From an uncultured Alphaproteobacteria bacterium (lineage in GTDB: Bacteria > Pseudomonadota > Alphaproteobacteria > Rhizobiales > Xanthobacteraceae): 64,000 bases of DNA. The notes beneath the pieces are model-generated. The model was given only the letters and a program-made list of their open reading frames with translations. It ran no database searches and had not been told where the DNA came from. Positions 25,478 to 25,898 of this stretch are shown one piece after another (the first letter of the stretch is position 1; each line of letters begins with the position of its first letter). The position numbers were made by a program, and so were the translations under genes. The stretch spans positions 244,896 through 308,895 of the forward strand of contig CAWHSM010000004.1 in NCBI GenBank assembly GCA_963832045.1, given 5' to 3'.

Positions 25478-25898
25478 GTCATTCCGGGACGCGCCTCTTG
25501 GCGCGGGCCCGGAATCCATAACCACAGGCCTTAACTGCAGATTCCAGGATAGAGATCGCCCCACTCCGGATTCTGTTCTTCGATCAAACGAACCTTCCAG
25601 TCACGCCGCCACTTCTTAAGCTCCTTCTCGCGCGCGATTGCCGTCGCGGCGTCCTCGTAGATTTCAAACCAGACCAGCTTATCGACACCGTATCGTGCTG
25701 TGAAACCACCAACCGTCTTGGTTCGGTGTTCGTAAGTGCGGCGCACGATGTCGTTCGTCACGCCAAGATAAAGCGTGCCGTGCTTCTTGCTCGCAAGCAG
25801 ATAGACATAAAAAGCCATCTCTAACGACTGGGGTTATGGATTCTCAGGTGCGCAATTGCGCACCATAGCTCGCTCGCTTTGCTCGCGCCCCGGAATGA
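25478..25898. repeat. Family-B REP-like composite bounded by GTCATTCCGGG / CCCCGGAATGA, with a GIY-YIG ORF in its central hairpin loop
   Basis: The left arm 25478-25523 ends in GGAATCCATAACC. The right arm 25832-25898 starts with GGTTATGGATTC and contains the perfect palindrome GGTGCGCAATTGCGCACC. The 308 nt between the arms is the ORF plus 7 and 13 nt. Confidence 0.6.
25531..25818 (-). CDS. GIY-YIG nuclease family protein (UPF0213/COG2827, 95 aa)
   Basis: MAFYVYLLASKKHGTLYLGVTNDIVRRTYEHR...AIAREKELKKW covers the GIY, YIG(YLG), Arg and Glu core of the URI domain. Confidence 0.88.
   Translation of the reverse strand: MAFYVYLLASKKHGTLYLGVTNDIVRRTYEHRTKTVGGFTARYGVDKLVWFEIYEDAATAIAREKELKKWRRDWKVRLIEEQNPEWGDLYPGICS

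Follow-up and report, generated by a model that had tools for sequence, protein, structure and literature searches.

The window analyzed here is a 64,000-nucleotide stretch of contig CAWHSM010000004.1 from an uncultured bacterium of the Xanthobacteraceae. It carries a small gene that, judged from its protein sequence, very probably encodes a nuclease of the Ssn family, and we are similarly confident that this gene stands between two inverted Bradyrhizobiaceae repeats (the arms) whose heads point outward on opposite strands. Comparison with related loci shows that the gene and its arms form a conserved unit across the family. The parts of the unit in the window are as follows.

25478-25898: composite in the order arm, gene, arm, with termini GTCATTCCGGG (start 25478) and CCCCGGAATGA (end 25898).
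25531-25818, minus strand: predicted ssn-type gene for a 95-aa single-domain GIY-YIG nuclease (PF01541, E 1.9e-15).
25477-25523, plus strand: intact arm on the 3' side of the gene, with an unpaired head TGTCAT, stem ATTCCGGG/CCCGGAAT, and tail CCATAACC.
25832-25898, minus strand: degenerate arm on the 5' side of the gene, with a nested palindrome module in place of the stem's 3' half.

PF01541 spans residues 3 to 75 of the 95-aa protein, and no further Pfam or NCBIfam domain was found. SsnA of Neisseria meningitidis (NMV_0044) is a 94-aa single-domain GIY-YIG protein (CDD cd10448) that binds the NTS hairpin (CGTCATTCCCGCGMAVGCGGGAATCYRG) in single-stranded DNA (ssDNA) only and cuts upstream (Chenal et al., Nat Commun 2025, PMC11893778). 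Aligned over 94 aa, the window protein shows 52% identity (E 3e-37) to a 94-aa Neisseria gonorrhoeae homologue, which is flanked by canonical NTS repeats and which we infer to be the orthologue of NMV_0044; on the strength of this identity, we file the gene as a probable member of the Ssn family. The catalytic GIY-YIG residues (two Tyr, Arg, and Glu) are conserved, and the columns that are at least 95% conserved among 73 relatives (VY.LAS, GT.Y.GVT, RR...H, and REK..KKWRR) are all common to the Neisseria protein. Median pairwise dN/dS was 0.10 (693 pairs among 73 intact relatives), indicating that the protein is under purifying selection, and only 2 of 79 copies (L048 and L066) are pseudogenes. 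A sequence search of the PDB returned only 1zg2 (UPF0213 BH0048; E 0.003), and exact-sequence look-ups of the window nuclease and of the SDR and hydrolase proteins encoded on either side returned no matching record.

The termini of the composite form an inverted pair of 15 nt (93% identity in a repeat scan of the window). Closer in, GGAATCCATAACC (25511-25523) and GGTTATGGATTC (25832-25843) bracket the open reading frame (ORF) with 7 and 13 nt to spare; the repeat scan reports this inner pair as 22 nt at 86% identity. Every sequence statement that the first-pass annotation had made about coordinates, termini, arms, and ORF spacing was verified. The stem of the intact arm encloses a nested hairpin, CGCGCC-TCTT-GGCGCG, so that the arm resembles the published Ssn-related motif (SRM) with a longer loop; folded as ssDNA (25474-25526), it reaches -18 kcal/mol (z -5.2) with head and tail unpaired. 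Allowing at most one mismatch, GTCATTCCGGG occurs 11 times in the window against 1.86 expected, a count that none of 100 shuffles reached. Three elements of this hairpin family were found in the 64 kb, all within 25.4 to 27.5 kb, and a second GIY-YIG gene was not found in the window.

A one-genome-per-species scan yielded 79 loci with relatives 72 to 91% identical, from Bradyrhizobium, Rhodopseudomonas, Afipia, Nitrobacter, Tardiphaga, and related metagenome-assembled genomes; the window makes 80. With the gene on the plus strand, the usual layout is GTCATTCCGGGG, a GC hairpin, AGCCCGGAATCCATAACCAC, 14 to 18 nt, ATG to stop, 10 to 12 nt, GTGGTTATGGATTCCGGGCT, a GC hairpin, and CCCCGGAATGAC. 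The first-pass annotation had placed the gene in the hairpin loop of a composite resembling a repetitive extragenic palindrome (REP) and bounded by terminal inverted repeats, and had asked whether homologues elsewhere lack such repeats. The strict layout, with the gene at the apex, holds in 48 of the 80 loci, and 12 more have the upstream arm in place (60/80). Across 366 kb of flanking sequence, any one framing motif is found just once in roughly every 15 kb, so that fixed spacing in this many loci is more than chance framing. When the window unit is aligned to other units, nucleotide homology begins exactly at the outer head. The idea that the two arms of one unit are kept identical by concerted evolution proved weak: arm likeness was 0.79 within and 0.72 between units, and an arm's own partner was its best match in 10 of 47 cases.

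The pairing extends to other lineages. A protein search of a plasmid collection, some entries of which are mislabelled chromosomes, returned homologues 43 to 60% identical, and twelve were inspected. Homologues in Azospirillum, Sinorhizobium, Neisseria, Novosphingobium, Rhizobium CIAT894, Shinella, Sphingobium, Aeromonas, Planktothrix, and Spirosoma are flanked by (C/T)GTCAT-headed hairpins of their own; the Photobacterium homologue has a hairpin on one side only, and that of R. tumorigenes has only a distant one. The hairpin sequence is lineage specific (GTCATCCCCGCG, GTCATCCCAGGG, GTCACCCCGGG, and GTCATTCTGAG) while the head is kept, and the pairing recurs in this form in three phyla. A near-identical hairpin, CGTCATTCCCGCGCAGGCGGGAATCCA, flanks ssn homologues in Aeromonas caviae (L087), Photobacterium (L088), and N. 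gonorrhoeae (L082), that is, in both Beta- and Gammaproteobacteria, which suggests that the pair has been transferred horizontally or that the repeat is strongly constrained. On plasmid AZO_p3 of Azospirillum lipoferum 4B (L080:1377-1889), an ssn homologue with two complete doublets lies between sufB and sufC in the suf operon.

These data bear on a passenger or chance explanation, namely, that an ordinary host gene happens to lie in a REP-rich spacer or is cargo of an unrelated transposase such as a REP-associated tyrosine transposase (RAYT). REPs do crowd many spacers, including the one that holds the composite, where relatives carry at least three hairpin families, and no transposase has been found beside REPs tagged with CGTC (Di Nocera et al., PMC3733652). 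Chance neighborhood is nevertheless hard to reconcile with the fixed spacing and with a pairing that recurs with lineage-specific hairpins across phyla, and the biochemical pairing of Ssn with its repeat is published (PMC11893778). Across about 1 Mb of loci, these doublets were not seen to enclose genes of any other class. We regard this explanation as close to refuted.

Several observations at the window locus do weigh against the reading of the composite as an Ssn unit. The 5'-side arm is degenerate, folds no better than shuffled sequence (z -1.0), and has been beheaded by an insertion sequence (IS), which cuts its outer head to leave ATCATTCC in place of CGTCATTCC; neither a target-site duplication nor a clean empty-site junction was recovered at this locus. 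The additional spacers at 25448-25477 and 27293-27381 have no traceable source, and 25390-25480 and 27288-27385 match other sequences only in their repeat parts. The local arms also miss the published SRM pattern, so cleavage rules may differ, and the main text of Chenal et al. (PMC11893778) holds no biochemistry on any Bradyrhizobiaceae homologue. On the pattern itself (HGTCWYN(0-2)YYVSBRHN(0-5)WNVSBRGN(0-2)RNCYNB, a search device rather than a biochemical definition), no arm of the three local elements matches, because the nested hairpin makes the loop longer and a G occupies the W position; five control loci do match.

The remaining two elements of the hairpin family, together with the palindrome that one of them shares with the composite, are as follows.

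25407-25447, no strand: short closed hairpin of the GTCATTCCGGG family, whose heads GTCATTCCGGG/CCCGGAATGAC pair directly around a small inner hairpin (arms matched at 11/11 nt, 19 nt apart; ssDNA fold -21.1 kcal/mol, z -7.0).
25847-25864, no strand: perfect 18-nt palindrome GGTGCGCAATTGCGCACC, nested in the 5'-side arm, with an identical copy at 27459-27476.
27382-27511, no strand: gene-less doublet of 130 bp (the twin), made of two inverted arms with central stem GGAATCCA/TGGATTC plus the palindrome module.

The palindrome module, (G/A)TGCGCAATTGCGCA(C/T) with flanks TCAG...ATAG, occurs at varying positions inside hairpin arms in many genomes. Variants were found in arms of L003, L006, L026, L039, L069, L070, L072, L092, L156, L163, and L170, and L069 has a module-bearing arm like that at 25832-25898. 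The module takes the place of part of the stem and has the appearance of a very small independent insertion or of a variant cassette. Elsewhere in the window, other GTCAT-headed hairpin families lie at 38117-38240, 14250-14337, and 45698-45802; the copy at 38210-38240 (minus strand) fits the published SRM pattern exactly (CGTCATGCCCGGGCTTGTCCCGGGCATCCAC). An Rfam search of 25300-27600 (E <= 1) returned only RsmW at E 0.67, a chance match, and no curated family covers the repeats or the noncoding RNA of the IS described below.

The first-pass annotation had proposed that the composite and the twin are a parent and its miniature. The twin has the same termini as the composite, a left module 92.9% identical over 42 nt, and a 33-nt block (27448-27480) identical to 25836-25868, with a loop of about 24 to 27 nt where the gene would be; it folds at -34.5 and -38.4 kcal/mol (z -4.9 and -6.0). 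The reading of it as a collapsed gene-bearing unit, however, found no support: alignment of its 27-nt loop to the leader plus trailer of 45 other units scored 20.0 against a shuffled null of 20.8 +/- 2.5 (p 0.69). Its history is clearer from the orthologous site. We fetched 80 metagenomic loci whose SDR gene is an orthologue (88 to 95% identity) of the one that lies immediately upstream of the composite. In about 50 of these, the hydrolase gene is convergent and the SDR-hydrolase spacer measures 40 to 210 bp, compared with 2129 bp in the window; a lone doublet occupies many of the short spacers, and the window-type gene is absent from all of them. The orthologous site is filled in the window and lacks the cassette in these metagenomic relatives. 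The right half of the twin (TTCGATGCTCCGCATCGCCCCGGAATGACGG...CTAAATCCGCT) matches the doublets of L092, L094, and L170 (there given as TTCGATGCTTCGCATCGCCCCGGAATGACGG...CTAAATCCGCT) at the same distance from the hydrolase stop codon, which identifies the twin as the resident doublet of the site. By this sequence comparison, the composite, the 25407-25447 hairpin, and the IS are best read as additions in the window's lineage. The parent-miniature proposal is consequently not supported for the local twin, which shows no significant gene remnant, and stands as a general relation, for which remnants in other genomes are described below.

Other nucleases have used the same spacer. At L095:4881-5141 (minus strand), another ssn paralogue, 45% identical to the window protein, lies between doublets of the GTCATTGCGAGG family, and at L161:4928-5215 (plus strand), a third, very distant GIY-YIG subfamily lies between GTCATCC(G/T)GAGG-type hairpins (GTCATCCGGAGG/GTCATCCTCGAGG). 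The clade thus contains several nuclease/hairpin pairs that make use of one site. The description of 25.39 to 27.52 kb as a nested hotspot of repeats and IS is borne out by the site. The spacer is also about 1.5 to 1.7 kb long in six relatives (L093, L134, L135, L136, L138, and L157), and L093:4768-6312 holds a 514-aa ORF; the site thus varies for reasons besides the nuclease cassette. Four soil-metagenome runs compared with 24400-28400 gave short contigs only, and the joints they contain, whose sides of roughly 30 nt derive from generic doublets elsewhere, are unusable as locus evidence.

Turnover was evident beside groEL, whose 3' end is no more than 700 nt from the cassette in 34 of the 79 loci; the two are convergent in 25 and co-directional in 9. 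L175 and L178 encode identical GroEL proteins from genes with 98.4% nucleotide identity (95% at third positions), whereas the L178 cassette is inverted relative to that of L175, only 81% identical to it, and frameshifted. Differing cassettes beside an identical GroEL imply that the cassette was replaced or re-inserted and not simply inherited, and the groEL-adjacent site looks like a hotspot for units of gene and arms. The cassette is often the first thing past the groEL terminator, in either orientation. These counts come from a test based on the groEL tail, which replaced a first synteny clustering distorted by spurious GC-rich ORFs and by the nuclease ORF that the loci share.

Decay of the unit could be followed in other genomes, where doublets hold gene remnants whose interior is deleted but whose leader and 3' terminal part persist. 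The remnant loops measure about 137 to 141 nt in L049, L058, and L065, where KKWRRDWK...LIE.QNP.W is still readable, 139 to 140 nt in L024, 97 nt in L053, 77 nt in L021, and about 75 nt in L039; remnants also occur in L041. Two tandem remnants in L007 have the same breakpoints and 98-nt loops (E 4e-12 to 4e-19 versus intact genes). At the short end of the range, many genomes contain doublets with one common derived form, CCATAACCAC-GATCG-GGAGTATGG. Since a loose 8-mer doublet scan produced many false doublets in coding DNA, only remnants confirmed by BLAST were used. This series supports the general relation between parent and miniature. We conclude that orthologous sites differ in whether they carry the unit, that at a fixed site it is open to replacement or inversion, and that internal deletion reduces it to gene-less doublets.

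Such behavior could reflect an autonomous transposon, with the nuclease acting as a transposase on ssDNA and gene-less doublets as non-autonomous miniatures moved in trans. An IS-like architecture with outward heads, filled and empty orthologous sites, replacement and inversion beside an identical groEL, use of that site in both orientations, loops graded from 288 nt to 5 nt with one same-breakpoint derivative present twice in L007, and the derived doublets shared by many genomes all fit this idea, which Chenal et al. raised as well, likening NTS-ssnA-NTS to an insertion sequence and mentioning both the RAYT analogy and domestication (PMC11893778). The chemistry counts against it: no strand-transfer or joining activity is known for the GIY-YIG fold or has been shown for Ssn. 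Nor does the distribution look like that of a multicopy element. The best 79 loci come from 79 different assemblies, one locus per genome, so the subfamily looks low copy, and the 34 loci beside groEL are syntenic. The slight excess of arm likeness within units, the lack of any target-site duplication, and the local twin without a gene remnant likewise count against transposition. We consider this explanation rather unlikely. The first-pass annotation had held that single-copy, syntenic homologues without these flanking repeats would refute its proposal. The flanking repeats are not lacking; copy number does appear low, and synteny is partial. This combination is closer to a domesticated gene of the RAYT kind than to a transposon present in many copies. 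The same annotation had cautioned that a small GIY-YIG nuclease is not an established mobilizing enzyme for bacterial REPs. The partnership of such a nuclease with a repeat was published in 2025 (Ssn with SRM/NTS, PMC11893778), with mobilization itself a hypothesis.

In its strongest form, the proposal makes the unit a fully autonomous element that moves by way of ssDNA, with the 95-aa nuclease as its sole protein and the CGTC REP doublets of the Alphaproteobacteria as its miniatures. We hold this to be unlikely. If true, it would constitute a prokaryotic transposase class outside the DDE, HUH, serine, tyrosine, and DEDD classes and would answer the question, posed in 2013, of what mobilizes CGTC REPs.

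Alternatively, only the gene and its inner inverted repeats (CATAACCAC...GTGGTTATG) might invade the apex of existing doublets by homing, the repeats themselves spreading otherwise. The nuclease would cut the apex, and repair would copy the occupied doublet with the arms of about 45 nt as homology. The gene is always at the apex, with a leader of 14 to 18 nt and a trailer of 10 to 12 nt; empty doublets at the orthologous site lack the CCATAACC extension (GGAATCTCGAGATTCC); inner-arm types covary with gene subfamily; and the outer hairpins of the two arms look as if drawn from a general pool. Published Ssn enzymes, however, cut ssDNA 5' of the head and not double-stranded DNA at the loop apex, and known homing GIY-YIG enzymes carry an additional DNA-binding domain that the window protein lacks. 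Moreover, L003, L004, L006, L014, L029, Azospirillum, and Sinorhizobium have the gene between two complete doublets and not within one. Homing is, in our judgment, quite improbable.

The reading that we favor remains that of an Ssn-family nuclease gene framed by two inverted, outward-headed repeats. By analogy with the Neisseria work, the protein would bind the folded arm in ssDNA and cut a few nucleotides 5' of the head. Because the heads face outward, one nick would be predicted just beyond either end of the unit, the two lying on opposite strands. Such cutting may underlie the spread or upkeep of the repeats, may limit recombination of incoming ssDNA, or both.

In the window, this arrangement has been interrupted by the IS, for which two features are relevant.

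25899-27292, plus strand: IS110-family IS (IS1111-like) in the arm head, with the transposase gene at about 25979-27003; the ends are uncertain by 2 to 4 nt.
27146-27161, plus strand: segment CTCGCCGGAATGATAG in the 3' noncoding part of the IS, which repeats the target junction and is a candidate target guide of the IS noncoding RNA.

The transposase matches NF033542 (E 1.5e-101), PF01548, and PF02371 (DEDD and Transposase_20), and subterminal inverted repeats TGTGGACGGCCCC lie at 25902 and 27275. The IS starts one base past ...GGAATGA, homology to IS copies on Bradyrhizobium plasmids spans 25896-27295, and joining the IS flanks restores CCCCGGAATGA|CGAGGG, a typical arm end. The element described at first as IS1111-like at the right terminus of the gene-carrying copy is of the IS110 family and sits in the arm head. 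Its target is CCCCGGAATGA|TGG, and the internal segment at 27146-27161 reads GCCGGAATGATAG. In two plasmid IS relatives (L172 and L173; about 70% nucleotide identity), the target is CTCATCCTTGA|TGG, within a stretch coding for LLILDDWG, and the internal segment at the same position is GCATCCTTGATG. Such covariation of target and internal segment is as expected of an RNA-guided IS110-family element, and a guide RNA is predicted for the window IS from this covariation between two IS relatives. The IS was probably aimed at the hairpin head, which it splits between CG and TCAT, and recognition of the gene's 5' arm has probably been lost as a result.

The enzyme-repeat partnership has been in print since March 2025, and the locus is a well-resolved example of it, not a new class. 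Its value lies in linking CGTC-tagged REPs (2013), Br-REP1/2 (2016), and Ssn/SRM (2025) in an agriculturally important clade, and in showing that the published SRM search pattern underdetects whole lineages. The comparative evidence given here is absent from the Ssn paper: empty sites, three nuclease/hairpin pairs in one spacer, turnover beside groEL, and the deletion series. Whether Ssn spreads its own repeats becomes directly testable in a tractable laboratory rhizobium.

Among known systems, GIY-YIG homing endonucleases of the I-TevI type combine the nuclease with a separate DNA-binding domain and reside in an intron or phage spacer, whereas the window protein has 95 aa, one domain, and a chromosomal spacer. 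The window IS can be compared with REP-targeting IS110/IS1111 elements (ISPpu9 of Pseudomonas putida, PMC12288879; Tobes and Pareja 2006, PMC1525189), as it also lies in a REP end at a fixed position and has a target-matching internal segment. This likeness concerns only the secondary insertion and stands apart from the nuclease system.

The likeness to RAYT/REPIN systems is broader. Both feature a gene, apparently low in copy number here, between inverted repeats that are its presumed substrate, gene-less inverted doublets elsewhere, long and partly vertical persistence, and single-stranded hairpin substrates. RAYTs are reportedly Y1 HUH enzymes of the IS200/IS605 type (Nunvar 2010; Bertels and Rainey 2011). 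The fold in the window is instead GIY-YIG (only PF01541 matched), not HUH/Y1, and the head is CGTC rather than GTAG; for GIY-YIG enzymes, no covalent intermediate or strand-transfer chemistry is known.

On the side of the repeats, the window arms are CGTC-headed palindromes of Bradyrhizobium and Rhodopseudomonas, like the CGTC-tagged REPs that are dominant in Alphaproteobacteria, including Bradyrhizobium, and that "apparently lack a dedicated transposase" (Di Nocera et al. 2013, PMC3733652). In B. japonicum USDA 110, Br-REP1 and Br-REP2 were described with no associated gene, Br-REP2 in more than 150 intergenic regions (Hahn et al. 2016, PMC5082802). The window arms and the orthologous doublets fit the Br-REP2 consensus (unpaired CGTC head, GC-rich stem, short tail, and ...GATTCCGGG-hairpin-CCCCGGAATGA), and relatives at the orthologous site form a three-stem-loop element with the Br-REP1 sequence CCGGAATCTCGAGATTCCGG at its center and the Br-REP2 sequence GATTCCGGG...CCCCGGAATGA at its right end. 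These papers report no enzyme, whereas Ssn-type genes lie between the repeats both in the window and in the other lineages examined. Conversely, in the main text of Chenal et al. (PMC11893778), "CGTC" appears only inside repeat sequences, and neither CGTC-tagged REPs nor Bradyrhizobium is named.

The closest comparison is with Ssn itself. The Neisseria and Wolbachia enzymes tested cut ssDNA a few nucleotides 5' of a conserved CGTCAT head, Neisseria Ssn is reported to limit recombination of incoming ssDNA, and 71% of Ssn homologues have an SRM nearby, 42% on both sides (PMC11893778). Two differences concern the repeats: the loop in the window lineage is a nested hairpin of 13 to 20 nt, whereas the published motif allows at most 5 nt, and the heads here point outward with the gene at the apex of a three-hairpin doublet, whereas the nearest heads in Neisseria face the gene. 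Bradyrhizobium is not known for natural transformation, so the role in Neisseria may not carry over. The systems share a single-domain GIY-YIG protein of about 94 to 95 aa, inverted flanking hairpins with a (C/T)GTCAT head and an ATCC tail, repeats that also occur without the gene, and lineage-specific pairing of nuclease and repeat.

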